Assembly (NCBI GenBank): GCA_038234075.1
Contig: JBBSUV010000003.1
Coordinates: 65,136 to 129,135, forward strand
Source of the DNA: Flavobacteriales bacterium
GTDB taxonomy: Bacteria; Bacteroidota; Bacteroidia; Flavobacteriales_F; PHOS-HE28
Direction of reading: 5' to 3'
DNA length: 64,000 bases
Positions 28,233 to 61,100 of this stretch are shown piece after piece (positions within the stretch are counted from its first letter, which is position 1; the number at the start of each line of letters is the position of its first letter). The notes below the pieces were generated by a model. It had not been told where the DNA came from, searched no databases, and worked only from the letters and a program-made list of their open reading frames with translations. The position numbers and the translations under genes are program-made.

Positions 28233-28237
28233 CCATC

Positions 28238-29893: not shown

Positions 29894-29942
29894 TTGTCTC
29901 ACGCTCCACTTCCTCCCCCTTATCTTCGCAAGAGCAACCACA

Positions 29943-30466: not shown

Positions 30467-30553
30467 AGAAGTCCTTGTGCTCACCCGGTCCGGCGAACAA
30501 CGGTAGCGTGTGAGCAATACCTTTCACTCAGGAGTGCTTACATTCCGGGATCC

Positions 30554-33307: not shown

Positions 33308-35034
33308 GCAAGAAGAATTTGAAAAAGGCCGCGGCGACCAAAGTGAAGCCTGCTCCAGCCAATAAGAAGGTCGTTGCAAAGAAGAAAGCGGCCACCCCTT
33401 CTCGAGCGATCACCAAGGCCGTGGCCCAAAAGCCACCCGTGGCGAAGCGGGCCGCTGCCAAAAAGAAGGCCGGCCCCGCTGCCCGAACGGCCACCAAGGC
33501 CGTGGTCAAAAAGCGCCCTGTAGTGAAGCGCGCTGTCGCCAAAAAGAAGGCCGGTGCACGCAAGAAGAAAACCGGTCCTTCAGTCCTGCGCGGCGTCAGT
33601 GACATCCGGCGTTTTTTCCACCGCAACGAGACGCCGATCTACTTCATCAGCGCCACCAACTTCAATCTGCTTGGCGCGGACGAATGGATCAAGGGCTTCA
33701 AGTTCATCACCTACATCGACTGCTTCGATGGGATGCATCCCAACCTGATGAGCCCGCAGAACGAGCAGCCGCACGCCGAGTTCCAGAGCATCGAGGACAT
33801 CAACAACTACCTGCTCACCCACAGCACGGTGAAGGACTACATCGAGAAGCGGAAGAAGGGGAAGAGCGCGGGAAAGGCCCTCTTCCTCATGTTCGACGAG
33901 GAGACTGAAAAGCGTGCGCGGAAGCTGGGCTTGGACGTGATCTTCCCCAGCGCCAAGATGCGCACCTTCATGGACAACAAGGTGAACACCAACCGCGTGG
34001 CTGAGAAGGCCGGCGTGCCCTGTGTGCCCTATGTGCTCAGCCCGGTGAAGAACTATGCGCACCTCAATAAGGTGTCGGCGAAGCTTGGCAACGACCTCGT
34101 GTTGCAAACGCCCTTCGGCGATAGCGGCCATACCACCTTCTTCATCAGCAACGAGACGGAATACCGCAAGTATGCCAAGGAGATCGAGGCCGAGAAGGAG
34201 TGCAAGATCATGAAGCGCATCAATTGCCGCGGCGCGGCGATGGAGGCTTGCGTCACGCACCACGGTACGATCGTGGCCCCGCTCATGACCGAGCTGGTGG
34301 GCTTCAAGGAACTGACCCCGTACAAGGGAGGCTGGTGCGGCAACGAGATCTATGCCGAGGCCTTCACGCCCACCATCCGCCGCAAGGCCCGGAAATATGC
34401 GCAGCTCTTCGGCGACCAGCTCCGCAAGGAAGGCTACAAGGGCTACTTCGAGCTGGACTTTCTCATCGACCAGGACAATGGCGAGATCTACCTCGGCGAG
34501 TTGAACCCGCGCATCACCGGCGCCAGTAGCATCACCAACCACGCGGCCTTCGCCATGAGCGACGCGCCGCTCCACCTTTTCCACATCCTGGAATGGATGG
34601 ACAGGCCATACACGCTGAACGTGAACGGGCTGAACCGCCGCTGGGCCAATGCCGAGAACATCGACTCTTGGGGCCAGATGGTGATCAAGCACACCGTGGA
34701 CGACATCCGCAGCGTTACTGAGGCGCCTCGTAGCGGCATCTGGCACATGCGGCCCGACGGTAGCATCCAGTTCCTGCGCATGGACACCCATCGCCGCTAC
34801 GTGGAGACCGAGGACGAGGCCTTCTTCCTTCGCATCACACGCGTGGGCGACTGGCTTTACGAAGGTGCCGACATGGGCATCCTCGTGATGCGCGGCCGGA
34901 TGATGACCGATGAATTCGAACTGCTCGAGCGTTCCAAGAAATGGCTGAAGGCGATCAAGGCGCAGTACAAGAGCGTGTCGCCCGGGGAGGATAAGACCGG
35001 GCCTTTAGAGATCGGTGGTTTCAAGATGATGTGA
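33304..35034 (+). CDS. ATP-grasp family ligase with ~110-aa histone-H1-like Lys/Ala/Pro-rich N-terminal tail
   Basis: 576 aa. The N-terminus is made of KKAAATKVKPAPANKKVVAKKKAA.. repeats. The ATP-grasp core follows (VLQTPFGDSGHTTFFI..., GYFELDFLIDQDNGEIYLGELNPRITGAS). The ATG overlaps the decarboxylase stop as ATGA. Confidence 0.65.
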   Translation: MSKKNLKKAAATKVKPAPANKKVVAKKKAATPSRAITKAVAQKPPVAKRAAAKKKAGPAARTATKAVVKKRPVVKRAVAKKKAGARKKKTGPSVLRGVSDIRRFFHRNETPIYFISATNFNLLGADEWIKGFKFITYIDCFDGMHPNLMSPQNEQPHAEFQSIEDINNYLLTHSTVKDYIEKRKKGKSAGKALFLMFDEETEKRARKLGLDVIFPSAKMRTFMDNKVNTNRVAEKAGVPCVPYVLSPVKNYAHLNKVSAKLGNDLVLQTPFGDSGHTTFFISNETEYRKYAKEIEAEKECKIMKRINCRGAAMEACVTHHGTIVAPLMTELVGFKELTPYKGGWCGNEIYAEAFTPTIRRKARKYAQLFGDQLRKEGYKGYFELDFLIDQDNGEIYLGELNPRITGASSITNHAAFAMSDAPLHLFHILEWMDRPYTLNVNGLNRRWANAENIDSWGQMVIKHTVDDIRSVTEAPRSGIWHMRPDGSIQFLRMDTHRRYVETEDEAFFLRITRVGDWLYEGADMGILVMRGRMMTDEFELLERSKKWLKAIKAQYKSVSPGEDKTGPLEIGGFKMM

Positions 35035-35157
35035 GCGCAGGCGTACCACAAGGTTTTTATACCACGAAGGACGCTAAGGACACGAAGGAAATAGTAGACC
35101 AAAGGAGAGAACGAATGATGACGAGTGCCGAACTGTTGAACTGTGCACTTCCCGTTA

Positions 35158-35544
35158 ATGACTGCTGACGAACTTTCCCATATTGTGATAGGACGGGCCA
35201 TTGCGGTTCATAGCGACCTAGGGCCGGGATTGTTCGAGAAGATCTATGAGAAGGCGTTGGCCTATGAACTGAGGAATCTGGGCTTTGCTGTTCAAGACCA
35301 GTTGGAGCTGCCTGTGATCTATAAGGGCCAGAACTTGGATATGGGATATCGGCTTGACCTTCTGGTTGAAGGGAAGTTGATCATTGAGGTGAAGGCGATA
35401 TCGGCATTTGACGAGATACACATGTCGCAAGTCCTGACCTATCTTAAACTCCCCGGTTGTACCCTTGGTCTCCTGCTTAACTTCAATGTGGGCCAAATGA
35501 AAAAAGGGATCAAGCGGATTGCTTTGGGTGATCCGAACAAATGA
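35158..35544 (+). CDS. GxxExxY protein (PD-(D/E)XK-like)
   Basis: It carries the GLFEKIYEKALAYEL motif and LDLLVEGKLIIEVKA. Confidence 0.75.
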   Translation: MTADELSHIVIGRAIAVHSDLGPGLFEKIYEKALAYELRNLGFAVQDQLELPVIYKGQNLDMGYRLDLLVEGKLIIEVKAISAFDEIHMSQVLTYLKLPGCTLGLLLNFNVGQMKKGIKRIALGDPNK

Positions 35545-35663
35545 TGCGATCAAGAACCCGAACATTCTCATGAGCGTATTTTTCGCTGATATTCTCCGTC
35601 CATTCATGAGACTTCGCCTCACTCCTTCGTGTTCTTCGCGTCCTTCGTGGTAGTCATTCCCTC

Positions 35664-44912: not shown

Positions 44913-45800
44913 ATGGCCAGCCTGAAGGAAGTCCGCAGTCGGATCGTTTCGGTGAACAGCACCAAGCAGATCACCGCCGCCATGAAGATGGTGAGCGCGG
45001 CCAAGCTGCGCCGTGCGCAGGACGCCATCATCCGCATGCGGCCTTATGCCGAGAAGCTGAGCGTGCTGTTGAGCAACGTGAGCGCTTCCTTGGACGGCAA
45101 TGAGAACAAGTTCGCGCAGGAGCGTATCGTGAAGAACGTCCTCTTCGTGGCCATCGTGAGCAATCGTGGTCTGGCCGGTGCCTTCAATACGCAGGTGTTC
45201 CGCCTGATCCGCAAGGCCACTGCAGCAGCGGAAGCCCGCGGGGAGCGCGTACATGTGCTCTCCTTGGGCAAGAAGGCTGCCGACCTCTATCGCCGCACGC
45301 CGTGGCACGCTTCGGGCTTCCCGGAGAACCTGGCAGCGCTGTATGACGGCCTGAACTTCGACAAAGTATCACCCGTAGCTGAAGCCATCATGGCCAAGTT
45401 CGCTGACGGCGAATACGACCGCGTGGAGCTCTTCTACAACAAGTTCAAGAACGCCGCCTCCCAGGTCGTCACCGAGGAGCGCTACCTGCCCATCGAGCCG
45501 CCACAAGCGGCCGCTGAAGGAAAAGGCGCCAGCGTGAAGACCGACCACATCATGGAGCCGGACCGGCAGACCATCGTGGAGGAGATCATCCCCAAGAGCC
45601 TGAAGATCCAGCTCTACAAAGCGATGCTGGACAGCTTCGCCTCCGAGCACGGCGCCCGCATGACCGCCATGCACAAGGCCACGGACAACGCGGACGACCT
45701 CCTGAAGGACCTTCGCTTGACCTACAACAAGGCCCGCCAAGCGTCCATCACCAATGAGATCCTGGAGATCGTGGGCGGTGCTGAGGCTTTGAAGGGGTAG
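44913..45800 (+). CDS. atpG: F0F1 ATP synthase subunit gamma
   Basis: 295 aa; MASLKEVRSRIVSVNSTKQITAAMKMVSAAKLRRAQ. Confidence 0.95.
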   Translation: MASLKEVRSRIVSVNSTKQITAAMKMVSAAKLRRAQDAIIRMRPYAEKLSVLLSNVSASLDGNENKFAQERIVKNVLFVAIVSNRGLAGAFNTQVFRLIRKATAAAEARGERVHVLSLGKKAADLYRRTPWHASGFPENLAALYDGLNFDKVSPVAEAIMAKFADGEYDRVELFYNKFKNAASQVVTEERYLPIEPPQAAAEGKGASVKTDHIMEPDRQTIVEEIIPKSLKIQLYKAMLDSFASEHGARMTAMHKATDNADDLLKDLRLTYNKARQASITNEILEIVGGAEALKG

Positions 45801-45974
45801 GTTTCACCTATTTCTGATTGCCATGCACAGTACAACAGTTGTGTCATGCCGTACTTCGATGCCGAACCTCATGTATGAGTTCCAATGATGAGTATAAAAC
45901 ACATTGGAAGCCATCGGATCGATCAGGCTAGAAATAGCAGATAAGCGAGGTATGTCGAAGCCAACAGGGCATTA

Positions 45975-47105
45975 CTAATCTCTACGCTTATTAACCTCTG
46001 CTTCCATCCGGGCTAGATTCACGCTCTTGCGATCATTGTCAGCCTTTAGGATTTTAGTGAGCTGTTGCACAAACATTGATGTATCTGCATAATAGTTCGG
46101 ATAGGCCTTCTTAAGGGCTTGGACAGACCCTGCCGATACAAGCACCACTTGGACACCTTTCTTGCCTCTGGTGCGTTCTTCCGCCTCCTCATATCGCTCA
46201 GTTGCTATGGCACTCTCTCTTTTAGAGAAGCCCGTCACAGTGAGGATTTTGCTATCCGGATCAAGTACCATCAAGTAGTACTCAGCTCGTTTAAGTTCAG
46301 GAGGAAGCTTGAAGAGCGCACTGAAGTTCATGAGCTTCGCTGCCACATTCAAATGCAAAGACAGACTAGCTGTTTCCTTTATCAATTCAACTGGATCAGT
46401 GGGTACTCCTTCAATTGCACTTTCAGTCTTTTCCTCAATCGCAAAAACCGAACTAACCAGCTGAAAGAATCGGTCCCATTCCGGTTCGCCTCTGCCGCTC
46501 TTGATCGCCGTTCCGTTCATAGTATCAACCGTCTCCACAGCAGTTGCCCAACAGTGCTGAAGGTGAGTTCGGAGTTGAATTTCGACTAGCTGGTCATCAA
46601 AAACATCGGTGGAGGATCCTTTGTATTTGTAAATGAGGTGGACACTCCTGTATCCGGATTTCTTCGGCTTAATCAAGTAGTTGTCAATCTTGACCAACTC
46701 ATGATCAATTGTTGCCGTCGACCGGTAGTAGTTCAGAATATCATTCACTTGCTTCATGTCTGATACAATGGCCCTACATCCGGCTATATCCTGCATTCGC
46801 TTCAGGCTCATGTGCTGTTGCTCCCGCAGTTTATTCAGTATTGAGGGTGTCCGCTTGAGTCGTTGAGCAACAATCGCTGTCCGACCGAACTTCCTAGCAA
46901 CCCAACGAAGTGTTACTTGGAATGTGTTCATCGGATAACTGTGGCAAGCCCTCCAATTGTCAAGTACTTCTTGTGCGTAAAGCCTTTCAGCCTCAGTAAT
47001 ATCCTCAGTTATCAGGAGCTTCCCAGCCTTTTCGATCTGATTGCGAGAATACTTACGCTCTGCCCAGTTTGCCATACTCCTTAGTGTCTTGGCAAGATAG
47101 AACAA
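45975..47105 (-). CDS. RelA/SpoT-domain nucleotidyltransferase with C-terminal extension (fused toxSAS / CapRel-like defence candidate)
   Basis: 376 aa in a locally low-GC segment. The synthetase motifs are DIAGCRAIV, SGYRSVHLIY and EIQLRTHLQHCWA. There is no hydrolase domain. The C-terminal domain is ~170 aa and uncharacterised. Confidence 0.7.
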   Translation of the reverse strand: MFYLAKTLRSMANWAERKYSRNQIEKAGKLLITEDITEAERLYAQEVLDNWRACHSYPMNTFQVTLRWVARKFGRTAIVAQRLKRTPSILNKLREQQHMSLKRMQDIAGCRAIVSDMKQVNDILNYYRSTATIDHELVKIDNYLIKPKKSGYRSVHLIYKYKGSSTDVFDDQLVEIQLRTHLQHCWATAVETVDTMNGTAIKSGRGEPEWDRFFQLVSSVFAIEEKTESAIEGVPTDPVELIKETASLSLHLNVAAKLMNFSALFKLPPELKRAEYYLMVLDPDSKILTVTGFSKRESAIATERYEEAEERTRGKKGVQVVLVSAGSVQALKKAYPNYYADTSMFVQQLTKILKADNDRKSVNLARMEAEVNKRRD

Positions 47106-47126
47106 TGCATCGTGAATATCCCATCT

Positions 47127-47192
47127 CCCACGCTCGGCTGGGTCAACAATATTTCCAGGCGCTCGGCTAAACGATAACCTCCCGGACCTGCC
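47127..47192 (+). repeat. island direct repeat copy 1 (~70 bp)
   Basis: CCCACGCTCGGCTGGGTCAACAATATTTCCAGGCGCTCGGCTAAACGATAACCTCCCGGACCTGCC. It is the most divergent copy and lies just 5' of the RelA/SpoT gene. Confidence 0.7.
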
Positions 47193-47399
47193 ACATGCCG
47201 TCCGGCGAACCGTCGGCCATCAAGGTCACGACATCAAGGTGCTCTCCCCCTCCGTCCCGCCGTTCGTTCTGAAAGCGCTTACACAGTTGGGATATGCCTA
47301 GAGTACGAGTGAAGAAGCTCGCGCCAGAGAGGGGGTGAAGACGTACGAGCTAGGACAGACTTGCAACTCGTAATGCTGATCCGAGGGCACGGGTCCAGA

Positions 47400-48650
47400 T
47401 CATTTGACTACAACGGTTTGCACCACTGTACTACCCGCATTCTGGACGCGCAACGAATACGTGCCCTTGGCAAACCTTGAAAGGTCGATCAACCGAATGT
47501 TTCTGGTCCCATTGCCGTTGAAGACCTCATTCTGCACCAACTGCCCCTTCACGTCGAAGACTTGCAGTGAGACCAAGCCCGACAGCTCTGTTTCCAATGT
47601 GAACTGGCCGGCATTAGGATTTGGGTAGACCCGGACGTTCCCGTTGACCGACATTTCATTCCCGTTGATCCCTTCACCGAGATCAACTGTGGTACAAAGG
47701 CCAGCGGTGTTGATGCATCCGTCCACATCGACATAGGTATAGGTCACACTGTGGGTTCCAACACCCGCCATTCCAGGGTCGAAAGTGCTACCGGATACCC
47801 CTGGGCCGATAAAGATACCTCCAGCAGGAACCCCAATCAATTCAACAATGCCATCAGTTGTGGTGTAAGATGCATCTAGACCAGTAAGGGAAACCGGCGT
47901 CTGACTACGACACGGGGATGCGGGCGTACCAGAGAACAGCCCCGTGATTTCTTGTTGGGATAATGCCCGGTCCCATATGCCAATATCGTCGATCAGTCCG
48001 CCAAATCCATCGAAGCCGGATATCGATTTCCTACCAATGTTCCAAGTTGTAGTAGTGCTTAATGGTGCATTGTTAATGCCTGTGTCTGTAAGGACACCAT
48101 CAATATATAGCGCGGCCTCACCGGCATTATAGTCAGAAGTGAATAAAATGTGGTGCCATTCGTATTTTGTAATTGCGAAAGTGGATGGCCATACTTGAGA
48201 ACCGGACGCGGCATATGAACATTTGATTGTTACCGTCGAGCCTATATCACTATTTACTATTATCCCTGGCTCACCGGAGGAGATTACTCTCGAATTGCTT
48301 GTAGCTGCGTCAAACCACACCCAACAGGAGATTGAGATTCTATCTGGCGACAGTTGGGGTAACGTACCTAAATCAATATAGTTGGAGCTGCTTAAGGAGT
48401 TGGGCCAGCTATAGGCACTATTCGAACTCCCAAAACGATCACTGGTTAGTGTGAGGGCTCCATTCACAGTTCCGTTATTCCCTGATCCGCTTTCATCATT
48501 CGCATCACCATTGAATGGCCACCAACCAACAAGGCCATTGGTGGGGATATAACTAGGGACTTGCGCAAACGCAAGGTTTGACAATACAATGATGGCAAGT
48601 GTTGCTAAGAGTGTCCTTCTTGCTCCCATTTTGGGTTTGTTTTGTTTCAA
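47400..48650 (-). CDS. secreted LamG/concanavalin-like domain protein with type-A T9SS C-terminal sorting domain
   Basis: Signal peptide (LLATLAIIVLSNLAFAQ), a LamG-like region, and a C-terminal Por_Secre_tail (VYPNPNAGQFTLE...GTYSLRVQ). Confidence 0.65.
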   Translation of the reverse strand: MKQNKPKMGARRTLLATLAIIVLSNLAFAQVPSYIPTNGLVGWWPFNGDANDESGSGNNGTVNGALTLTSDRFGSSNSAYSWPNSLSSSNYIDLGTLPQLSPDRISISCWVWFDAATSNSRVISSGEPGIIVNSDIGSTVTIKCSYAASGSQVWPSTFAITKYEWHHILFTSDYNAGEAALYIDGVLTDTGINNAPLSTTTTWNIGRKSISGFDGFGGLIDDIGIWDRALSQQEITGLFSGTPASPCRSQTPVSLTGLDASYTTTDGIVELIGVPAGGIFIGPGVSGSTFDPGMAGVGTHSVTYTYVDVDGCINTAGLCTTVDLGEGINGNEMSVNGNVRVYPNPNAGQFTLETELSGLVSLQVFDVKGQLVQNEVFNGNGTRNIRLIDLSRFAKGTYSLRVQNAGSTVVQTVVVK

Positions 48651-48747
48651 TCAGATTGGTGGGGACTATACGGTTTTGGCTGGAGAGATAATCCAACATT
48701 GGTCGAATGTAGTGCAATGACGTACAAGCGAGCAAATTACCCTCGAA

Positions 48748-48822
48748 CCCCACGCTCGGCTGCGTCATCAATAGTTCCCGGCGCTCGGCTCAACGATAAC
48801 CTCACAGACCTGCCGAGTGCCC
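48748..48822 (+). repeat. island direct repeat copy 2 (~75 bp)
   Basis: CCCCACGCTCGGCTGCGTCATCAATAGTTCCCGGCGCTCGGCTCAACGATAACCTCACAGACCTGCCGAGTGCCC, followed by a GC hairpin. Confidence 0.75.
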
Positions 48823-49002
48823 AGTTCTTTTCCGCCGAGCCTGCCCCGGAGCCGCATCCGGGGGCGGGCTCCGCCGATCTTGCCATTCAATCTCTCCTTC
48901 CTTAGGGCATGCGCGTGGTCCGAGGCATATTGGACCCGCCCAGCGTCAAGAACAACCCCTTAACTTTACGTCTCAACCATCCGTCAGACTGACCAACAAG
49001 CC

Positions 49003-49242
49003 ATGACCACTCTAGAGCTAAGGGCCGAGATCAACCAGTTGCTGAGCCACGAGAACAACACTTCCGTGCTGGAGGCGATACGTATGCTTTTGCGCAGGGA
49101 AGAAGCGGATGTTGATGATGACTTCACCGATGAGGAGATCGCCGAGCTCGAGCAACGCCGCGCGCGCTATCTGAGCGGAGAGAGTAAGCCCCATACCGTG
49201 GAAGAATCCATGCGTCTTGCACGCGAAGGGTTCAAGCGGTGA
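49003..49242 (+). CDS. type II antitoxin (addiction-module component)
   Basis: 79 aa; acidic; 4-bp overlap with downstream ParE-like toxin. Confidence 0.55.
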   Translation: MTTLELRAEINQLLSHENNTSVLEAIRMLLRREEADVDDDFTDEEIAELEQRRARYLSGESKPHTVEESMRLAREGFKR

Positions 49243-49529
49243 ATTTCACGGTTCAAGTCCTACCGGAAGCTACTGAGGAGGTCGGGGTGATCTTCGGCTA
49301 TTATGAAGACAAAAAATCCGGTTTGGGGAAACGCTTTCAACAAGCACTGAACGCGTGTTACGAGGATCTGGCGCTCGATCCGTGGAGGCAGAAGCGCAAG
49401 GGCGTTTTCCGGCATGCCATGATCCAAAAGTTCCCCTATCGCGTGGTGTATGAAGTTCATGGCAAACGTGTGATCGTTTACCAAGTGCGCCACACCAGCC
49501 GCAAACCCAGTAAGAAGTTCGGGCCGTAA
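49239..49529 (+). CDS. type II toxin RelE/ParE family
   Basis: 96 aa; KFPYRVVYEVHGKRVIVYQVRHTSRKP. Confidence 0.65.
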   Translation: MNFTVQVLPEATEEVGVIFGYYEDKKSGLGKRFQQALNACYEDLALDPWRQKRKGVFRHAMIQKFPYRVVYEVHGKRVIVYQVRHTSRKPSKKFGP

Positions 49530-49554
49530 TCACAGGCTGACCAAGCCGCTGAGG

Positions 49555-49628
49555 AGACCCCATCCCCGCGCTCAGCTGGGTCAACAATAGTTCCCGGTGC
49601 TCGGCTCAACGATAACCTCACAGACCTG
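49555..49628 (+). repeat. island direct repeat copy 3 (~74 bp)
   Basis: CCCCGCGCTCAGCTGGGTCAACAATAGTTCCCGGTGCTCGGCTCAACGATAACCTCACAGACCTGCCGAGTGCCC, followed by a CCGCC..GGCGG hairpin. Confidence 0.75.
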
Positions 49629-49801
49629 CCGAGTGCCCGGCTCCTGTCCGCCTCTGGCGGGCTCTGCGATACGGATATGAGTGTTGAAGATGGCCGGTGG
49701 CCGCAAGAGTTGGGCACTCGGGAACTCCGGATGAGACTCCGGGGCCGAGCGCCGGGTTCAGAGAGACTCTGCGTTCCGGACGGGCCAAACTGTCATAGCA
49801 C

Positions 49802-50110
49802 TCAACGCCTTCTTTCTTCAAACCGGCTTTTCAGGTCCATCCTTTCGTGTAGGACCCTGATGATCTCGATCTCCAGTTCGTTCAAGGCCATGAAGAATAC
49901 GATATGCCGACCGGTGCGCACTCCTTTCAGGCCCGCACGGATCTCGTCATAGTTCCTGCCTGAACCAGGGTTGTCGGCCAATTCTTGAAAAGCATCCAAA
50001 AAATCCCGGTAGTATTTGTCTGCTTGCTTTTCTGACCATCGATCGAATGTGAAATTCCAGATGTCCCCTAGATCTCCGATAGCCTTGTTAGAGAGGATAT
50101 ACCTACCCAT
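49802..50110 (-). CDS. parE: type II toxin ParE
   Basis: 102 aa; MGRYILSNKAIGDLGDIWNFTFDRWSEKQADKYYRDF...GRHIVFF. Confidence 0.75.
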   Translation of the reverse strand: MGRYILSNKAIGDLGDIWNFTFDRWSEKQADKYYRDFLDAFQELADNPGSGRNYDEIRAGLKGVRTGRHIVFFMALNELEIEIIRVLHERMDLKSRFEERRR

Positions 50111-50354
50111 TCGTTCCCCTCTTGGCCTTCAGTTCCGCAAGATGTTCCTTCGGATCGAAGTCCTTGGCGAGCCCACTCTGCACGCCCTCTTCAATGGCCA
50201 TGCGCAAAGCAGATATTTTACTCTCCTCTTCCTCCAATAACCGCAGCGCGGCGCGGATCACCTCGCTGATATTCCCGTAGCGGCCTTCGGTTACGCTCCG
50301 TTGAATGAACTGCTCATAATAGGAGCCGAGTGAAACGGGGGTGTTCTTGCTCAT
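50103..50354 (-). CDS. parD: type II antitoxin ParD
   Basis: 83 aa; GRYGNISEVIRAALRLLEEEE; 8-bp overlap with parE. Confidence 0.75.
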   Translation of the reverse strand: MSKNTPVSLGSYYEQFIQRSVTEGRYGNISEVIRAALRLLEEEESKISALRMAIEEGVQSGLAKDFDPKEHLAELKAKRGTNG

Positions 50355-50523
50355 TGTTCAATGCTTCCATCCCAAAGGTAACGTGCTTAGGGACATTCCG
50401 GCAGTCTTCAGCCTGCTGCGCGGAACCACCCCGTTCCTTCCTCTTGGATAGCTTCGCCTTTCGAGGCCGGTCACAAAATGTGACCACCTTATGAAACGCT
50501 GGCCTCCGATATGGAAGCCCTCG

Positions 50524-50793
50524 TCACTTATCGCCGTAGTGCCCTTTGCAGCTCATTACTTCTACCGATCCTTCACTGGTCATTCGATAGACCAACCGGT
50601 GCTTTTCATCGATCCGTCGGGACCAATACCCTTTGAGTGCTCCTTTCAATGGTTCCGGCTTACCCACGCCTTTGAAGGGTTCGCGCAGGATAGCCTTGAT
50701 CAAGTCGTGGATCTTGATGTACCGCGCTTTGTCGTAGATGCCCCAGTCGCAAAAATCATCGTAGGCGTTCTGCTCGAAGATAATGCGCTTCAT
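50524..50793 (-). CDS. yoeB: type II toxin YoeB/Txe family (copy B)
   Basis: 89 aa; 2 aa substitutions relative to copy A. Confidence 0.8.
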   Translation of the reverse strand: MKRIIFEQNAYDDFCDWGIYDKARYIKIHDLIKAILREPFKGVGKPEPLKGALKGYWSRRIDEKHRLVYRMTSEGSVEVMSCKGHYGDK

Positions 50794-51047
50794 GCCTTGA
50801 GGCGCTCCATCACCATAGCGTCCAGATCAGCCTCTGAAAGTGTGACGGAGTTTCCTTTTTCAAGGTTCTTGATCGCCTTGTCCAAGCGCTGGAGGTAGAC
50901 CTTCTTGCTTTCCGAGCGTGTCAACTCGAAATCCGTACTGGAGCGGATGGTAAGCGTGAGCTCGCGGTCCTTGTCGAACAAGCGTTTGATCTTGTTCAAC
51001 AGGTCCATGTCCAACTCCGATACCTTGATGCGCAGGCTTGTTTCCAT
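50790..51047 (-). CDS. yefM: type II antitoxin Phd/YefM family (copy B)
   Basis: 85 aa; 3 aa substitutions relative to copy A. Confidence 0.7.
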   Translation of the reverse strand: METSLRIKVSELDMDLLNKIKRLFDKDRELTLTIRSSTDFELTRSESKKVYLQRLDKAIKNLEKGNSVTLSEADLDAMVMERLKA

Positions 51048-51153
51048 TGGGCTTAACTCTTGCGAAGATAGGAGATCATCCCAAGGGCCTGAAGATCCAA
51101 CTTCGCAAGGTTATCGTTACTCCCTCCGTGTTGGTAGTCCTTCCGCAAGCGAT

Positions 51154-52137
51154 TTAGAACGCACTACTGGTCATCCTTCTTGAGCGACCCGAGATCGTTC
51201 CGTAATACACGATCGAGAATTCGAATGCGCCGTTGTTGTTCGTGTAGGTGCGCAGCGGTGAGGTATTGATGTCGTAGCTGAAGCGGTACATGTTGTTACC
51301 GTGCTTGATGCCGACCTGTGCGATAACAGCATCATCCAAACGATAGGAGCAGCCTGCCACCACGCCATACACACCGTTCATCAGCGCCACCTGGCCTAAG
51401 AGGCCGGCCTGGATCATCTGGTCCGGGCCTTGGCGCATGTAGAGCCCTTGCGGGATGATGTCCACACCTTCGGCTACCGTGATGTACGCACCCGCGTTCA
51501 CCGAATAGCGGATCGGCAGGTCGCTCTTCTCCTCGCGGAAAATGGATTCGTCCGGCGTGGTGACGTGGAAGAGCGCGAAGTTCCCGAAGGGGTTGATCAT
51601 CTTGTTCCTGTTGGTGGAACGATAGGCCACACCAGCACCGAGGTCCAGCATCATCCTTCCCTTCTTCTGGAACGCTTCCCCTGAGGGCAGGTCGTTGTCA
51701 AAATGGTCCCGGTCGTACTGGGCGTCCCAAACCAACTTGTTGTCGTTCACCTTCTTGTAGATCAAGCCCAGGTTCACTCCCGCTGAAAGCGTATAGTACT
51801 TGGATGACGAGACGTTGTACGCGCCGGTAAAGCCCGCCTGGAAGTTGTTCAACACGTTGGCCATGTTGTAGTTGTTCAGGTAGGCCCCGAAGCCGTACTT
51901 CCTGTCCATGGACATGTCCACCGCGAAGGCCGTGGTGAGGAAGTTGCTCGCCAAGCTGTTCCACTGGCTCCGCAGGTTGCTGCTCACCCGGAAGTCGCTG
52001 TTCTCATACATGCCCGTGAGCGCCGGGTTCAGGAGTACCGAGGCCGCATCGTACTGGCTCAGCTGTGCATCCTGGGCACGCGTGGCACCAGCTCCGAAGA
52101 GCATGATCGCCAAGAGGAGGGTTGCTTTCGTTCTCAT
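51154..52137 (-). CDS. T9SS PorP/SprF-family outer-membrane beta-barrel protein
   Basis: 327 aa with a signal peptide, FAVDMSMDRKYGFGAYLNNYNMANV and a terminal aromatic residue. It lies immediately downstream of a type-B-CTD giant adhesin, as with sprB-sprF. Confidence 0.75.
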   Translation of the reverse strand: MRTKATLLLAIMLFGAGATRAQDAQLSQYDAASVLLNPALTGMYENSDFRVSSNLRSQWNSLASNFLTTAFAVDMSMDRKYGFGAYLNNYNMANVLNNFQAGFTGAYNVSSSKYYTLSAGVNLGLIYKKVNDNKLVWDAQYDRDHFDNDLPSGEAFQKKGRMMLDLGAGVAYRSTNRNKMINPFGNFALFHVTTPDESIFREEKSDLPIRYSVNAGAYITVAEGVDIIPQGLYMRQGPDQMIQAGLLGQVALMNGVYGVVAGCSYRLDDAVIAQVGIKHGNNMYRFSYDINTSPLRTYTNNNGAFEFSIVYYGTISGRSRRMTSSAF

Positions 52138-52150
52138 TGTTCTGTTCTCT

Positions 52151-55100
52151 TTAGCGGATCAAAGTCACTTTACCCGAGCGGTCAAAGTCCTGGCCTTCCA
52201 CCGATGTGGCGACGACCGTGTAGACGTACACCCCGTTGATCTCCGGCTTCCCGTTGTGGGTGCCGTCCCATCCGAACTCAGGGTCGCTGGTCTCGAAGAC
52301 CATTTCGCCCCAGCCGTTGAAGACCTTCAGTTCCATGGTCTTGAAGGGGCCACCGCGGACGAAGAAGACGTCGTTCACTCCATCGCCGTTCGGGCTGAAA
52401 GCGTCCGGTAGTTTCGGTGGCACGATCTTGTTCTCGGTGATCGCGATGAGCATGGAATCGGAGGCGGTGCAGCCTGCAGCATTGGAGACCGTCTGCACGA
52501 TGATGTACTGACCTCCCTGGGTATAGGTGTGCGTGGGATCCTGGGAGAGCGAACCCTGACCATCACCGAAGTTGTAATGCCAGCCGTTGCCTCCGAAGGA
52601 ATTGTCCTCGAACACGATCGACTCACCAGTGAAGGCATCCCCGGTGAAGGAGAAGCCTGCCGTGGGTGCGAACATCACCTCCACTACTTGGCTGGTGGTG
52701 GCGCTACAGCCGTTCTGTGCGAATACTGTGAGCGTTACCGGATACTGTCCCGCTCCAGCGAAGGCGTTGCCAGCCTGTTGACCAGCTGCAGTGCTGCCGT
52801 TGCCGAAGTCCCAGTTCCAGCCGATGATGGGCGAACCCGTGGTGGTGCTGGCATCGGTGAAGGCCGTGTTCGATCCTGCACAAGCGTTGCCGAAGTTGAA
52901 GGCAGCGTTCAGCGGGTTCACGAACGACAGCTTCACGGTATCCACCGCTGCGGCGCAGAAGAGGTCACCCGTGGTGGTGAGGAACAGTTCCACTTGTTGC
53001 AATTGGGAGTCGCCGGTGCTGGGCTGGTAGGTGGCATTGGCCGTGGTGTTGTTCGGCAGGAAGATGCCGGAACCGTTGGTGGTCCATTGCAAGCCCGTGG
53101 CGCCGTTGTAGATACCTGCCAGCTGCACATCCGCCGAGGCGTCGCAGGTGGTAATGTCCGTGCCTGCGTTCACCGTGGAAGGCTGGTGCATGTTCACTGC
53201 CAGCGTATCGGTGTGCGCGGGGCAGCCCATGTTACCGGTGGTGGTGAGCACGAAGCTCAGTTGCTGGAACACCAGGTCCGGTGCGCTCGGCACGTAGCTC
53301 GCGTTCAAGGCATCGGCATTCGGCAGGAAGGTGCCTGTGCCGTTCGTGGTCCACGTGCCACCGCTCACTCCTGTGATGTTTCCGGCCAGTTGGACGATGC
53401 CACCATTGGCACACACGTCCAGGTCAACACCAGCGTTCGCGATCCGTGTGGGGCCCACTCCGATGAAGAGCGAATCCGATGCGTTGCCGCAGGTGCCCGT
53501 GCCGTAGGCCGTGAGGATCAGGTGTACGCCACCTGCGATGCTGTCATTGGCCGTAGGTGTGTAAGTAGCGTTCAGCGTATTGGCATTGGGGCTAAAGGTG
53601 CCCGTGCCTGCGGTGATCCATCGCACCAACGAATCGTTCTGCGCGGTGCCATTCAGTTGGATCGGCGACAGGCCATTGCAGAGCAACAGGTCCGTGCCGG
53701 CGTTCACCGTTGGTGGCACATGGTAGCTCACCACCAAGGTGTCCTTTCCGGCGGGGCAGCCCGCGTTGTTGGTAGTGCTCAGCACCAGGGAAATGTCACC
53801 GATCACGAAGTCCGCTGGGCCCGGGATGTAGGTGGCGTTGAGCGCCATAGCTGAAGGGCTGAAGGAACCCGTACCCGTGGTGCTCCACATGCCCGTGGTG
53901 GTACCTGCAACTGCGCCGTTCAGCGAAATGTTAGGCGCCGTGCTGCAAGTGATCACGTCTTGACCGGCCTGTGCAGAGAGCCCGCCGCCGAAGGTGATGG
54001 TGAGTGCATCCGACACCGCGCTGCAAGGCAGGGTGCCCGTGGTGGTCACGGTGAGCGTCACGGTTCCCAGTGTGCTATCAGCTACGCTTGGGTAGTAGAG
54101 CGTGGCCAAGGCATTGGCATCGAAGAAGGTGCCCGTGCCCGAAGTCGTCCACGTACCGCCAGGCGCATTGGCTGCATTGGCGGCCAACTGTACAGGTGCG
54201 CTCGTGCAAGCGACCACATCGCTACCGGCCATGATGTTCGGCACGGCCCGCAGGTTCAACGTCATGGCATCGGAGGAAGCCGCGCAGGAGCCGTTGGTGA
54301 TCGTAGTGATCGTCAACTGCACTGAACCCGCTGCGATATCCGCATTGCTGAGCGTGTAGGTAGCGTTCGGATCCGTGTTGTTGCTGAAGGATCCCGAGCC
54401 GGAAGTGCTCCACTGGATGCCTTGTGCTCCGCCGCTGAAGTTGCCCGCGAGCTGGGCGATCGGTGAGTTGACACAGAGGCTCTGATCCGGACCGGCGTAA
54501 GCAAAGCTGGTGTTACCGAAGGTCAGCGTCATCTGATCGCTACCGCTGGGGCAAGTGCCCGTGTTGGTAGCGGTGAACGTGAGCACAACCGAGCCGTTGG
54601 CCACATCGGCCGCGGAGAAGAAGTACTGCGCGTTGAGCACATCGGCATTGGGCTGGAAGGTGCCCGATCCGGTGGCTGTCCAAGTGCCCGAAGGCGATCC
54701 GTTCTGAACGGTGCCCAACAGATTGGCATGGTCGGAGAGCACACACACGCTCTGGTCCGGCCCAGCGCTCACGATGATTCCAGCGGTGAGATAGATCGTC
54801 ATCGCATCGCTCACCGCGCCGCAGTTGCCGTTGTTCAAGGAGGTGAGCGTGAAGTTGATCTGACCCGCAGCGATGTCCGCAGCACTTGCCGTGTACGTGG
54901 TGTTCAGTGCACCTGCGTTGGCGATGGTGCCGGTGCCTGTGGTGGTCCACTGGCCCACCGTGGTGATGCCGGATATCATTCCGCTCAGGTTGAACTGGCT
55001 CACTTGGTCACAGTAGGTCTGGTCCGCTCCTGCGTTCACATAAGGTGCTGGTGTCAGCTGCAGCGTCATGGCATCGCTGGCGTTGTTACAGCTGTTCACC

Positions 55101-58100
55101 GCGTTCAGCGTCAAGGTCAGCGAGCCGATGGCGGTGTCGATGTTGCTGGGAATGTAGGTGGGCGTCAGCACGCTGTTGCTCGGATAGAAGGAACCCGTGC
55201 CGGAGGTGGTCCACTGCACTTGGGTGGCATCGCCGCTGAGCGTTCCAGTGAGCTGCACCGTGGCGTTGTTCGCGCAGAAGCTCAGGTCCGGACCAGCGTT
55301 CACGTTGCCGGAAGGTTGGATGGCGATATACACCGTATCCACAGCCGCGGTGCATGCACCGGTGTTGGTGGCGGTGAGCACCAGCCTCACACCGTGTGCT
55401 AAGGAATCCTGGGCGCTGGCGTGGTAGATGTTGGCGAGCGCATCAGCCGGGTTGGCGAAGCTGCCCGATCCCAACGTGCTCCACACGCCGGTGGAAGAGG
55501 CACCGCTCACTTGGCCATTGATCAGCACGTTCAGGTTACCGAAGCAGACCACTTGATCGGCCCCAGCATTCGCGCTGGAGACCGGCACGATGGTCACGCT
55601 CATCTGATCCATGGCATTGTCACAGCTGTTCACGCTCCAGGTGAAGGTGAGCGTGCCTTGGGTCGCATCGCCCGGAGCCACTTGGTACACCGCGTTCGCA
55701 GCACTGGCGTTCGGGTTGAAGGAACCTGCACCGTTCGTGGTCCAGTGACCTTCAGTGGCGTTACCGCTGATGCTACCGGCCAGTTGCACGGTGGCTTGGC
55801 TTGCGCAGATGCTTTGGTCAACACCGGCGTTGGCGACGGCGTTCGGAAGGATGGTCAAGGTCATCATGTCCGACACCACGTTGCAGAGACCGTTGTTGGT
55901 GGAAGTCAAGGTGAGATCCACAGTGCCGTTGAGTGAATCCAGTGCACTGGCCATGTACGTGGCATTCAGCGTGGTGGCGCTCGGGAAGAAGGTGCCTGTG
56001 CCGCTGGTGGTCCAGGTACCGGTGGTGGATCCACCTTGCACGCTGCCCGTCATCGGCACTTGCAGTGCACTGGAACAGGTGGTGACGTCCGGACCGGCGC
56101 TCACCACAGGGGCGGGCGTTACGGCGAGCATCACTTGGTCCACTACGGAGAGGCAGTTGCCATTGCCAGTGGTGGTGAGCGTAAGCGCCACGCTGCCGGT
56201 CTGCAGTTCGAAGCTCGAAGGCACGTACTGTGCGTTCAGTGTCTGTGCGTTCGGCGTGTAGCTGCCGAGGCCACCGCTCCATTGTGCGCCACCGGCCACC
56301 GTGATCGCACCGTTCAGCGTTACCAGCGGGTTGTTGGCGCAAACGTCCATGTCCATACCGGCATTCACTGTGGGCGCTGGCGTGAAGGTGATGGCGAGAG
56401 TATCGCGCACAGCGAAGCAATTGCCGTTGCCGGTGGACGAGAGATAGAGGTTCAAGCTACCCGAAGCGATCTCCAATGCCGTGGGCGTGTACACGGGACT
56501 GAACACGTTGTTGGAAGGGCTGAAGGTGCCGCTTCCACCGGACCATGCACCACCGTTCGCGTTGTCCACGTTTCCGCTGAGCTGCACTGCCGCGTTGTTG
56601 GCGCACACAGCCTGATCCATGCCGGCATTCACCACAGGTGCATCGGTGAAGTAGACCGTCATCTGGTCGACGACTGCAGCACAGAATGTGGTGCCCGTGG
56701 AAGACAGCGTGAAGGTGATGGAACCTGCCGTTACCTCCGCCTCAGTGGGCGTGTACTGCAGCGCCAGCGAGGTGTTGTTCGGGAAGTAGTTGCCATTTCC
56801 TCCGGTCCATTGGCCGCCCGAGGCGTTGCCCACAAAGCCGTTCAGCTGGAAGTTCGGGTTGTTGCCGCAGATCTGTTGATCCGGTCCGGCGTTCACCACA
56901 GGAACAGGATCCACGATGATCACGAGGCTGTCGCGCACCGCATTGCAATTCCCGTTGCTGGTGGAGGTGAGCACCAAGGACATCTGTCCAGCGGCGATCT
57001 CAAGCGCAGTAGGCTGGTAAGTGGCGTTCAGCGTCTGGGCGTTAGGCGTGAAGACACCTGCACCGCCGCTCCACGCGCCGCCATTGGCCACGGTGATCGC
57101 ACCGGCCAATTGCACCTCGGAACTGTTGGCGCACACATGAGCATCCAAGCCCGCATTCACGATTGGCGCCGGAGTAAAGTCCAAGCGCACGGAATCGCGG
57201 GAGGCCAAGCAGCCGCCGTTGCCGGTCGAGGTGAGATAGAGCCACAATCCGCCTGCGCCTACTTCAGCAGCGCTCGCCGTGTACACCGCGTTCAGTGCAG
57301 TGGCATTCGGACTGAAGGATCCAGCACCGCCGCTCCATGTACCGCCGGTAGCATTGGTCACCTGGCCATTCAACGAGGCAGCGATGTTGTTGGCGCAAAG
57401 GGTTTGTGCGGCACCGGCCTCCACTACTGGAGCGGCGGTGATGTTGATGGTCACTTGAGCACTCACTGCATTGCAAAGTCCGTTGCCGGTGCTGGTCAAG
57501 GTGACCGTGGCCGTGCCTGCAATTACTTCAGCAGCGGAAGGTGTGTAGATGGCGCTCAGGCTGTTCGCATTGGGCGAGAAGCTGCCTGCACCGGTCCATG
57601 TTCCGCCCGTAGCGTTCTGCACCGATCCGGCCAGTTGCACACTCGGGTTGTTCGCGCAGGACTGCATGGGTTGACCAGCGTTCACCACTGGTGCTGGCGC
57701 GATGGTCACCACCATCTGGTCGTTCACGGCGCTGCACAGCGCATTGCCCACTGTCGTCAAGGTCAACGTGACAGTGCCTGCGGAGATCTCCGCTGCGGTC
57801 GGTGTGTACACTGCATTCAGGATGCCGCTGTTCGGCGAGAAGCTGCCCGCTCCACCGCTCCAGATGCCGCCCGTAGCTACGGTAACAGATCCGTTCAATT
57901 GCAAGGTGGCGTTGTTCGCGCAGATGCTCGCGTCCAGTCCAGCGTTGGCCGTGGGCGCAGGTGTGAAGGTGTAGGTCACTTCGTCGGTTACCGCCGTGCA
58001 ACCGCTGTTGCCCGTGGTGGTAAGCACCAGCGTGGCGCTCCCTGCGGCGATCTCACCTTGTGAAGGTGTGTACACCGCGTTCAGTGCATTGGCGTTCGGG

Positions 58101-61100
58101 CTGAAAGTTCCTCCTCCGCCGCTCCACGTTCCGCCATTGGCGACGGTGACACTGCCGGCCAATTGGATAGCCGCATTGTTCGCGCAACGCACACCATCCA
58201 CACTGGCGTTGGCCGTCGGCGAAGCGGTGAAGGTGATCAGCACTTCATCAGATACCGGCACACAATTGCCGTTACCGATAGTGGTCAAGGTCAAGGTCAT
58301 GGTACCGGCTGCGATCTCCGTTGCGGTCGGGATGTACACCGCGTTCAGCGATGCGATGGAAGGCGTGAAAGTGCCTGCACCACCGCTCCATTGTCCGCCA
58401 CCAGCACCGCTAACGGAACCACCGAGCTGCACTTGTGCATTGTTCGAGCAGACGAAGAGGTTGTTGCCCGCGTTGGCGGTTGGCGAAGCAATGATCGTGA
58501 TCGTCATCTGGTCGTTCACCGCGTTGCACAAGCCGTTCTGGGTGGTCGTGAGCGTGAGCGTTGCAGTACCCAGGGCCACCTCAGCAGGATTGGGGTGGTA
58601 GGTCGCGTTCAGCGTGTTCGCATCGGGCGACCAAGTGCCACCGCCGCCGCTCCATACACCGCCAGTGGCGATGGTCACCGCGCCGTTCAGGATAACTGAA
58701 GGATCGTTGGCGCAGACGGTGCGGTCCACTCCTGCATTCACCGTTGGGCTTTGCGAGAAGTAGATCGTCATGGCATCGTTCACCGGTGTGCAGGTGCCGT
58801 TGCCAGTGCTGGTGAGGGTAAGCGTCACTGAGCCATTCGCGAGTTCAGTAGTGCTTGGGGTGTACACCGCATTCAGCGCGTTGATGCTTGGTGAGAAGCC
58901 GCCCGTGCCACCGCTCCAGCTGCCGCCCGTGGCGTTGCTGATGGAGCCGGTCAGTTGGACACTGGAGTTGTTCGAACAAACCGTGCGATCGATACCAGCC
59001 TCCACAACTGGTGCAGGTGCGAGGGTGATCACCACTTGATCGGACACGACGTTGCAAGTTCCGTTGTTCGTGGAGGTCAGTGTCAATGTGACGGTGCCTG
59101 CGGCGATCTCACCCAAGGTCGGGGTGTAGGTAGCGTTCAGGTTGTTCGTGCTGGGGTTGAAAGTGCCCGAGCCGCCGCTCCACACACCGCCACCCGCGTT
59201 GTTCACGACACCAGCCAGTTGTGCGGTTGGGTTATTGGCGCACACGGTGAAGTTGTTGCCGGCGTTCACAACCGGTGCAGGAGAGATCGTGATCACGATC
59301 TGGTCTATCACCGGATTGCTATTGCCATTGCCCACGGAGGTGAGCGTAAGCGTCACGCTACCTGCGGCGATCTCGGCCGCTGAGGGATAGTAAGTGGTGT
59401 TGAGTGAAGTGTTGTTCGGCGTGTAGCTGCCGGTGCCGCCACTCCAGATACCACCCGTTGCGATGGTCACGCTGCCACTTAGGACAACGACCGCATTATT
59501 GCCGCAGATCACTTGGTCCGGACCGGCGTTGGTCGAGGGCGCATCGCTGAAGGTGATGATCATGGCATCGGTGGCCGCAGCGCAGGAACCGTTGCCCGTG
59601 GTGGTCAAGGTCAAGGTCACGCTGCCGGAAGCGATCTCCGCTGGCGTGGGCGTGTACACCGCGTTGGTGGTCGTGTTGTTCGGGTTGTAAGTACCCGCGC
59701 CGCCGGACCATACCATACCGCTGGCGATGGAATAGGAACCAGCCAAGGTGGTCGCTGCATTGTTGGCGCTTACAGATTGGTCAACGCCTGCATTGGCTAC
59801 CGGAGCCGTGGTGAAGGTGATCTGCACTTGGTCGGATACCGCTGCGCAATTGCCGTTGCCAGTGGTCGTGGCAGTTAGCGTCACCAAGCCGTTGGACACC
59901 TCGATCGTCGAGGGTGTATAGGTGATGTTCTGTGCGGTGCTTCCTGGTGAGTAGAGGCCGCTTCCACCGGACCACTGCACGCCAGTGGCCACCGTGATGG
60001 CGGCGCTCAGCATCGCGCTACCGTTGTTCCCGCAGAGGGTCTGGTCCACACCGGCGTTCACTGTCGGTGCAGGCGTGATAGTGAAGTGCACCTGGTCCGT
60101 TACCGGGTTGCAGGTGCCGTTTCCGGCCGAGGTGAGCGTGAGTGTGAAGCTACCAGCGGTGATCTCTGCCGCATTCGGTGTGTAGGTTGCATTGAGTGTG
60201 ATGCTGTTCGGGCTGTACGTACCGTTGCCGCCGCTCCAAACCCCGCCCACTGCTCCGTTCACGCTTCCGTTAAGGGTGACTGCTGGCGAATTCGCACAGA
60301 CAATGCCATCCAGTCCTGCGTTCACGATCGGCGCAGGTGTGTACGTGATGATGCGGGTATCGCTGGCAGGTGTGCAGTTGCCGTTGCCCGTGGTGGTCAA
60401 GGTGAGCGTCACCATGCCCGCAGCGATATCGCCAGGTCCGGGGTTGTAGGTCGCGTTCAATGTGTTCGCGTTCGGCGTGAAGCTGCCGGTGCCACCGGTC
60501 CAAGTACCGCCAGTTGCGATCACCACGCTGCCGTTCAGGGCCACGCTGCCATTGTTCGCGCAACGGGTCACATCAGGTCCTGCGTTCGCGGAAGGCGCAT
60601 CGGTGAAATTGAGCACCACTTGATCGATAGCCGCATTGCAAAGGCCGTTGCCGGTGGTGGTGAGCGTAAGCGTTACGCTGCCGTTGGTGATCTCCATCGC
60701 TGTCGGCGTGTAGATCGCGCTCATGTTCGTGGTGCTCGGATCGAAGGTGCCGTTGCCGCCGCTCCAGATTCCGCCAGTTGCCACGGTGAAGGCACCGGAC
60801 AGGGAGGTCACTGGATTGTTGGCGCAAAGCACACGATCAGAACCGGCGTTCGCCGTAGGTCCGGGAGTGATCGAATAGGAAACTTGATCGCTCACTGCGG
60901 TGCAATTGCCATTGCCCACCGTGGTAAGAGTTAGTGTGACGCTGCCTGCAGTACGCTCCGCAGCGCTGGGCGTGTAAGTGGCGTTGAGTGTGCTACTGTT
61001 CGGGCTGTAGGTACCGGTTCCTCCGCTCCAGATGGCTCCGGAAGCACCGTTGACAACACCGGCCAAGATGAGCGCCGAGTTATTCGCGCAGACCGTTCCG

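Follow-up and report, generated by a model that had tools for sequence, protein, structure and literature searches.

The interval between atpG, which encodes the gamma subunit of ATP synthase, and the PorP/SprF gene (hereafter sprF) in a 64,000-nucleotide (nt) stretch of Flavobacteriales DNA (contig JBBSUV010000003.1, positions 65,136 to 129,135; the window) is foreign, strain-variable DNA. In our view the interval is likely to be a hotspot of the chromosome at which horizontally acquired cassettes collect, situated between two originally adjacent conserved genes and built by recombination at short anchors. The anchors that we propose are the 3′ end of atpG itself and a repeat, J1, that lies between cassettes. 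The cargo comprises a homologue of the fused toxin–antitoxin CapRel, a predicted substrate of the type IX secretion system (T9SS) and three toxin–antitoxin (TA) modules. This is the gene content given in the initial annotation, and all of it (RelA/SpoT, LamG-like T9SS substrate, antitoxin/ParE, ParD/ParE and a YoeB pair) is recovered with Pfam, NCBIfam and PADLOC.

A variable interval between two conserved genes

The interval, its flanks and its contents are as follows; aa denotes amino acids, ORF open reading frame and toxSAS toxic small alarmone synthetase.

45801..51153, no strand: variable low-GC interval (5.35 kb) between the atpG ORF end at 45800 and the sprF ORF end at 51154
44913..45800, + strand: atpG (ATP synthase gamma), conserved left flank (Pfam ATP-synt, 4.9e-95)
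51154..52137, − strand: PorP/SprF, conserved right flank (PorP_SprF 3e-36; TIGR03519 5.9e-48)
45975..47075, − strand: CapRel-type fused toxSAS toxin–antitoxin, 366 aa from ATG, open frame to TTG at 47105
47126..47199, + strand: J1a, J1 copy 1 (repeat family D1), between the CapRel and LamG genes
47400..48629, − strand: LamG/concanavalin-like protein with a T9SS type-A C-terminal sorting domain, 409 aa, open frame to 48650
48748..48821, + strand: J1b, J1 copy 2, between the LamG gene and the antitoxin/ParE module
49003..49242, + strand: TA module 1, putative antitoxin, 79 aa (Unstab_antitox 1.1e-3; 19.4 bits, below the cut-off of 23.3)
49239..49529, + strand: TA module 1, ParE/RelE-superfamily toxin (ParE_toxin 2.1e-8; 35 bits against a cut-off of 23)
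49564..49637, + strand: J1c, J1 copy 3, between two convergent ParE genes
49705..49760, − strand: partial inverted J1 copy that pairs with J1c (inverted repeats I3, I4)
49802..50110, − strand: TA module 2, ParE toxin (ParE_toxin 1.5e-16; no match in sister genomes)
50103..50354, − strand: TA module 2, ParD antitoxin (ParD_antitoxin 7.9e-26; TIGR02606 2e-25)
50524..50793, − strand: TA module 3, YoeB toxin (YoeB_toxin PF06769 2.8e-30; TIGR02116 92.2 bits against a cut-off of 51.8)
50790..51047, − strand: TA module 3, antitoxin-position protein of unclassified family, 85 aa, overlapping YoeB by 4 nt
51070..51112, + strand: putative remnant of a duplicated atpG fragment, 43 nt, matching atpG 45580-45620 and abutting the end of the YoeB module

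The drop in GC content that the initial annotation placed between the atpG stop and sprF is borne out by measurement. GC is 0.512 in the interval against 0.586 +/- 0.014 (minimum 0.562) in other 5353-nt windows of the 64 kb (z −5.5), and the tetranucleotide L1 distance is 0.333 against 0.138 +/- 0.014 elsewhere in the window (z 13.9). GC is lowest in the atpG-proximal half (CapRel gene 0.468, LamG gene 0.487) and the drop is milder in the TA half (0.51-0.54). At third codon positions, GC (GC3) is 0.49-0.58 in the island genes measured (CapRel 0.50, LamG 0.49, and ParE2), whereas it is 0.80-0.84 in atpA, atpG and sprF.

Such values could in principle come from native DNA, with short, weakly constrained genes and intergenic sequence lowering the GC, or from an assembly chimera. 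Small TA genes and intergenic DNA are frequently AT-richer than their surroundings, and the source is a metagenome-assembled contig. However, the two long genes have a GC3 of about 0.50 against a native value of about 0.8, the tetranucleotide deviation is large, and over 45638-48812, which runs from the atpG 3′ end past the LamG gene to the second J1 copy, the sequence is 100% identical in an independent Logan assembly (L083). Because this identity spans the atpG–CapRel–LamG junctions, the interval is not a mis-assembly. Relatives moreover show both an empty site and alternative cargo at this position, and we give a native or chimeric origin practically no weight.

Species-representative genomes that we scanned with atpG (70-82% protein identity) include the empty site: in locus L014 the stop codons of atpG and sprF lie 7 nt apart, so that atpG almost directly precedes sprF there, and the gene that follows sprF encodes, as in the window, the giant adhesin. 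In L003, two unrelated genes separate atpG from sprF. A set of sister genomes (L084-L091; 92-93% identity in the atp genes), reached through homologues of the 85-aa antitoxin of TA module 3, allows the edges of the interval to be placed precisely. The flanks are 87-93% identical to those of the window, homology ends 3 nt past the atpG stop (45803/45804), and it resumes exactly at 51154, the sprF stop. Between these points the sister genomes keep the antitoxin/ParE module (84% identity, over 48953-49541) and the YoeB module (89%) in the same orientation and in swapped order, together with extra partial YoeB copies, and the CapRel, LamG and ParD/ParE genes were not found in their intervals. Next to atpG they carry one of two other types of cargo, either an ABC-ATPase and TOPRIM-like pair matching PADLOC HEC-01A/B (5e-63, 4e-16) or a GEVED protein of 725 aa whose T9SS tail is weak. 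Their islands have a GC content of 0.515 against 0.617, and the interval content is different again in L003 and L095-L100. Thus relatives do not hold the same genes at native GC in the same place; their islands are of low GC and of different content.

Close relatives fill one slot with differing foreign cargo, which is how a core-gene-flanked hotspot behaves, and on these alignments the interval appears to be one, with conserved flanks and variable content that includes defence genes. The antitoxin/ParE and YoeB modules appear to be older residents, and the CapRel, LamG and ParD/ParE genes appear to be lineage-specific. The island proposed in the initial annotation therefore stands as regards its foreign composition, the empty site in L014 and the other cargo of the sister genomes. 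A single insertion does not account for it, because two TA modules are shared with the sister genomes.

atpG duplications, J1 repeats and the proposed assembly of the interval

Copies of the atpG 3′ end bound inserts in two groups of relatives. In L004, a direct repeat of 68 nt, copied from the atpG 3′ end, stands on either side of a 1.85-kb insert. This insert (10880-12803 of JBATND010000063.1; GC 0.51 against 0.62) contains a 517-aa ORF without a Pfam or PADLOC match, which could be an uncharacterised defence or mobility gene, followed by IS3-family orfA/orfB. In L095-L100, the insert is 0.69 kb long, consists of the YoeB module only and lies between 203-nt repeats of the atpG 3′ end that are 92% identical to each other (position ~9599-10493 of L095, in the atpG-forward orientation); L003 represents the uninserted allele.

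The window retains what we read as a trace of the same arrangement. The 43-nt segment at 51070..51112 matches an internal part of the atpG 3′ end (BLAST 34 nt, 91%, E 1.3e-5; nhmmer with an atpG 3′-end profile, E 5e-5) and occupies the position of the 203-nt atpG duplicate in L095. The module boundary that it abuts, 51070, is set independently by the sister comparison and by a second copy of the YoeB module in the window (29921-30469). A full atpG 3′ duplicate was not found in the window; only the 43-nt internal remnant is present. This pattern is most simply read as a Campbell-type entry of the YoeB module at the atpG 3′ end, in the course of which some 220 nt of atpG would have been duplicated. 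Taken together, the window, L004 and L095-L100 suggest that the atpG 3′ end is a recurrent insertion point.

The other candidate anchor is J1, a direct repeat of about 75 nt that has three matches in the interval against none expected and occurs nowhere else in the 64 kb (nhmmer E 2e-26). The three copies are about 10% diverged from one another, which equals the divergence between the window and its sister species. Because their mutual divergence matches the species divergence, the copies are evidently not recent local duplications, and they may have arrived together with their cassettes. A single J1, 94% identical to J1c, stands at the inner edge of the variable slot in L084-L087, L089, L090 and the metagenome locus L081, and no copy was detected in L088 or L091. 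Scanning metagenomes for J1 yielded one true match (L081) and one chance match (L082); a 163-kb metagenome contig of such a relative carries J1 once, and J1 was not found in the viral contigs searched or in 80 atpG loci of other species.

Junction sequences of a different kind, J2 and J3, are present in the relatives and share the core YCAACRATAA with J1; the core has the same orientation in all junction types. The L084 interval contains four copies of this core in one orientation, with none elsewhere in the 20-kb locus. J2 of the sister genomes (L081 1015-1110 and 1580-1670; L084 10734 and 11298) forms an interrupted hairpin of about 20 bp around the CAACAATAA core and is the only junction element that folds better than shuffled sequences (DNA fold z −3.0). 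Both a second YoeB-like gene and a YefM-position gene are truncated by J2, which also marks a tandem duplication of 564 nt. J1c and the inverted partial copy together have a DNA fold of −51 kcal/mol, with a z of only −1.8.

Several other identities for J1 were considered and set aside. A stable hairpin or terminator is not supported, the single-strand folds of J1 being no better than shuffles (z −0.4 to −1.3), and it has no Rfam match at gathering thresholds as a known RNA. Nor do J repeats travel with the YoeB module, since other loci carry the module and no J repeats. J1 may act as a promoter, judging from the sequence of the core: on the − strand it reads TTATYGTTG, which we take to be close to the Bacteroidetes −7 promoter box, and 5 of the 7 core copies lie upstream of a − strand gene. 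A sigma-70 promoter scan is uninformative for Bacteroidota. Our working idea is that J1 offers, as the atpG end would, a short stretch of homology on which single-crossover insertion is anchored.

On this basis we propose that cassettes entered at or just after the atpG stop in several events, each shifting older ones towards sprF. The YoeB module would be the oldest resident, having come with the atpG 3′-end duplication of which 43 nt survive; most of the duplicate would later have been deleted, and later arrivals would have settled between atpG and the older module. The newer cassettes, antitoxin/ParE and then LamG, would each have come to lie between two of the three diverged J1 copies, and the atpG-adjacent CapRel gene, which has the lowest GC, would be the latest arrival. 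The likeliest route would be a single crossover of excised or imported circular DNA at the short shared anchors (atpG 3′ end, J1), alongside exchange of the entire interval through homologous recombination in its conserved flanks. Because the island encodes no recombinase, the activity would be supplied from outside, either by host general recombination or by an enzyme encoded elsewhere. All main island ORFs are accounted for with Pfam and PADLOC and no recombinase is among them, and Pfam scans of 20 further ORFs, most of the larger ones in the window, revealed housekeeping functions only and no integrase, transposase or resolvase.

A number of observations weigh against this account. Neither a circular intermediate nor a recombinase nor a crossover point was observed, so that the route of recombination is an inference. 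The J1 copies show no crossover mosaic, their differences being mostly private substitutions; the shared TA modules have edges that do not fall on the J core; and cassette GC does not change monotonically with the proposed order of arrival. J1 could alternatively be a regulatory element that was simply co-duplicated. The view of the site as a defence hotspot is also qualified. The PADLOC run called for by the initial annotation matched the CapRel homologue and returned no match for the other 7 of the 8 island proteins, HEC-01 is a candidate defence system that gave no protection in published assays, and the functions of the CapRel, TA and LamG proteins are assigned from homology and family membership, with any protective effect of CapRel predicted only.

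Anchor recombination has to be set against acquisition as one integrative element (a prophage, an integrative and conjugative element (ICE) or an integrative and mobilisable element) that targeted the atpG 3′ end, entered once and then eroded. Duplication of a gene end is the classic scar of integrase-mediated integration at that position, CapRel SJ46, a characterised member of the CapRel family, is prophage-borne, and IS3 genes stand beside the L004 insert. A single entry is hard to reconcile with the relatives, though: the sister genomes share only some modules, in another order and with other atpG-proximal cargo, which requires several independent gains and losses. Cassette GC varies from 0.47 to 0.54, the J1 copies differ as much as species do, and no recognisable phage, conjugation or integrase gene, intact or fragmentary, is found in the island. 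We regard a decayed single element as unlikely. An island targeted to a tRNA gene was also considered, and ARAGORN finds no tRNA in the window.

There is also a formal resemblance to an integron-like cassette array without an integrase (a CALIN, cluster of attC sites lacking integron integrases), in which the J repeats would be attC sites and their integron integrase would be encoded at another place. Chromosomal integrons typically contain TA cassettes, and the Vibrio superintegron is a chromosomal cassette array that carries them. As in such arrays, the interval has one- or two-gene cassettes, interspersed TA modules, repeats between cassettes in a single orientation, and an order that varies between relatives, here shuffled in the sister genomes without inversion. 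The core YCAACRATAA is common to all junction types and constant in orientation, and J1c has GCTCAAC and GTTGGGC 112 nt apart, fitting the R″/R′ consensus. An attC site is recognised by inverted R″/L″ and L′/R′ boxes that form a bulged hairpin of 55-141 nt, and J1 was rejected as one on this measure: the R″-spacer-L″/L′-spacer-R′ complementarity of the J regions is 9-10 of 14, within the spread of the random-window background (mean 6.7, sd 4.4, maximum 13), and the single-strand folds of J1 are, as noted, no better than shuffles. The genes moreover occur on both strands and stand in no constant relation to the repeat, the homology of the modules does not end at a GTT core, the 20 other window ORFs scanned include no integrase, and the repeats have no Rfam match. 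Among the genes scanned at the locus there is likewise no intI, and no attI/Pc platform was found. We think a CALIN improbable.

Anchor recombination thus remains our preferred reading. We also entertain, as a rather doubtful extension, that the atpG 3′ end and the J repeats (YCAACRATAA) are the sites of an undescribed, integrase-unlinked cassette-exchange platform of uncultured Flavobacteriales. If so, the platform would be integron-like in function, with other sites and a recombinase acting in trans, and would shuttle defence genes, TA modules and T9SS cargo into one chromosomal slot.

The site has counterparts in other bacteria. Elements that are mobilisable in cis and lack an integrase accrete in tandem at the 3′ end of a conserved gene at streptococcal ICE sites. 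The atpG site resembles these in that direct repeats copying the 3′ end of the target gene bound the inserts of L004 and L095-L100, elements stack and no recombination genes are carried. It differs in that no cognate ICE or integrase was identified for the atpG site, the atpG repeats are long (68-203 nt) and diverged (92% identical), and the later window cassettes would use J1 and not the atpG end. Core defence hotspots flanked by conserved genes have been described in Pseudomonas aeruginosa (PMC10250203), and defence-island hotspots of this kind in Escherichia coli (PMC10121019). These share with our site the fixed core flanks, the strain-variable, low-GC content that includes defence genes, the lack of obvious membership of one mobile element, and a proposed transfer through flank homology. 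In contrast, the atpG site spans only about 2-5 kb in all genomes examined, compared with a 26-kb median, contains mostly TA modules and genes for secreted proteins, and bears explicit scars (atpG 3′ duplications, J1) that would indicate how cassettes entered.

The locus is thus an ordinary kind of small defence and addiction hotspot beside a conserved operon, and only modestly unusual in its atpG 3′-end target, the lack of a recombinase in our searches and the locus-specific junction repeat. It overturns no current view and is a clean example more than a surprise. Its empty, differently filled and scarred versions document how a small hotspot beside an essential operon is assembled with no mobility gene of its own, and the atpG-end duplications and J1 offer handles for distinguishing general recombination at short anchors from a hidden site-specific system.

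A CapRel homologue next to atpG

The atpG-adjacent gene encodes what the initial annotation called a fused toxSAS candidate, and our analysis strengthens this assignment: by sequence and by structural model, the protein is homologous to CapRel from end to end. The 366-aa ATG start agrees with the gene call of protein record P0036. Besides a RelA_SpoT Pfam domain (1.3e-18), the protein has a full-length PADLOC match to the candidate family PDC-S33 (1.3e-119). Among all Protein Data Bank sequences the best matches are 7ZTB and 9ERV, with residues 15-351 (of 376) aligned to chain positions 11-368 (of 373) at an E of 1.5e-40. An AlphaFold2 model (predicted local distance difference test score, pLDDT, 91.5), in which the C-terminal module consists of three strands and a helix, has 7ZTB and 9ERV as its top Foldseek matches (about 355 columns; template modelling (TM) scores 0.67/0.71). 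The high root-mean-square deviation of the model from 7ZTB is consistent with a closed model being compared to an open crystal form.

7ZTB is CapRel SJ46, in which toxin and antitoxin are fused (Zhang et al. 2022, PMC9712102) and which pyrophosphorylates tRNA once a phage capsid protein has bound to the pseudo-zinc-finger domain at its C-terminus (PMC9712102). The window protein is about 31% identical to it. In SJ46 numbering it keeps the ATP-coordinating residues R79 and R116, Y155 of the G-loop, and the autoinhibitory Y352 and Y355; the YxxY autoinhibition motif reads KKAYPNYY in the window protein and KKAYPNYF in SJ46. At the docking interface, A77, V338, L339 and A351 are kept and A341 is replaced by Ser (4 of 5 conserved). 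Across an alignment of 38 diverse homologues the positions corresponding to these arginines and tyrosines, numbered R72, R101, Y142, Y325 and Y328, are invariant. Both the catalytic and the autoinhibitory residues of a fused toxSAS are thus retained.

We predict from family membership that the protein is an abortive-infection sensor-effector. It would be an autoinhibited tRNA pyrophosphokinase in which the pseudo-zinc-finger domain at the C-terminus blocks the ATP site by means of the YxxY motif; a phage protein would open it on binding, tRNA 3′ ends would be pyrophosphorylated, translation would stop and infection would abort. Like SJ46, it is a single ORF product of about 370 aa that combines a toxSYNTH domain at the N-terminus with an antitoxin/sensor domain at the C-terminus, aligning end to end with SJ46 as its top structural match. 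The two differ in context, the window gene lying in a chromosomal, integrase-less Flavobacteriales hotspot and that of SJ46 in an enterobacterial prophage. They also differ in the variable sensor region, which is unrelated in sequence, so that the trigger of the window protein is not predictable.

An ordinary small alarmone synthetase making (p)ppGpp for the stringent response would also carry a RelA_SpoT domain, and the protein does have weaker matches to RelQ/RelP structures (~1e-9) and to NCBIfam YjbM (56 bits). The structural matches, however, cover the central 110 residues only, and the YjbM score is far below the cut-off of 320 bits. By contrast, the best match, CapRel, is full-length and includes the C-terminal antitoxin domain that small alarmone synthetases lack; the YxxY motif is invariant across the 38 homologues, and the PADLOC match (1e-119) is to a defence-candidate model. 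The gene is furthermore foreign in composition and missing from the sister genomes. A stringent-response function is therefore very improbable.

The family comprises 5978 matches that are scattered taxonomically, and the best non-self homologue is 64-65% identical. Since CapRel has already been reported in Bacteroidetes, the window protein is another member of a known family and not a new kind. With this locus, an uncultured Flavobacteriales lineage of high GC contributes a well-supported CapRel-type sensor, with a sensor domain unlike the enterobacterial ones that have been studied, which makes it useful for asking what CapRels recognise in Bacteroidota phages. The closest homologue (65%; L092/L093, 3529-8357) lies in a 0.45-GC patch of a contig with a GC of about 0.60, flanked by a GEVED T9SS cargo gene and a DUF3800 gene, and is a second instance of a CapRel gene adjacent to T9SS cargo.

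TA modules, surface proteins and a second accessory patch

The three type II TA pairs, two of ParE type and one of YoeB type, would act as addiction modules that stabilise the interval and could possibly serve as further abortive-infection modules. In module 1, the end of the antitoxin gene overlaps the start of the toxin gene by 4 nt, which fits a TA operon, with the antitoxin family match remaining sub-threshold. In module 2, ParD is directly upstream of ParE with an 8-nt overlap. Module 3 was initially annotated as YefM/YoeB, of which the toxin half is secure, YoeB scoring above its cut-offs, and the antitoxin half is not: the 85-aa protein is not a recognisable YefM/Phd member, having no Pfam or NCBIfam match at E <= 0.01, and its 35 homologues likewise lack any precomputed Pfam domain. 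It is upstream of YoeB in every homologous locus, and position alone marks it as an antitoxin.

The YoeB module is itself mobile, because it has a second copy in the window and further copies at several unrelated loci in other genomes. In a more distant genome (L106 4069-7107 and L107 243-3257), the antitoxin/YoeB module stands beside a gene for a 661-669-aa PF10136 'SpecificRecomb' protein and an NTP_transf_2 (MNT-like) gene.

The LamG protein is predicted from its domains to be a surface or secreted T9SS substrate, and would be exported to the cell surface by this system. It has a Laminin_G_3 domain (3.9e-25) and a sorting domain at residues 341-416 (Por_Secre_tail 3.7e-12, TIGR04183 6.4e-13), its N-terminus, MGARRTLLATLAIIVLSNLAFAQ, looks signal-peptide-like when judged by eye from the unscored sequence, and its nearest non-self homologue is 49% identical. 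A giant repetitive adhesin is encoded at 52151-63979, directly upstream of its partner PorP/SprF. The protein has >3942 aa in the window's open frame, reaches up to about 6640 aa in the sister genomes, and contains PKD repeats and a CHU_C type-B T9SS domain. The adhesin and PorP/SprF pair form the conserved right flank of the hotspot.

Elsewhere in the window, 26787-30469 is a second small accessory patch with a GC content of about 0.52, which contains the following features.

26787-27530: NYN and OST-HTH protein
27627-28232: DUF4160 and DUF2442 fusion
29630-29893: orphan CdiI_3 contact-dependent-inhibition immunity gene
29943-30466: second copy of the antitoxin/YoeB module, inverted with respect to the island copy and 89.6% identical to it in nucleotide sequence

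GC also dips locally to 0.486 at 35001-35622, where an ORF at 35218-35622 (134 aa) has no Pfam match.

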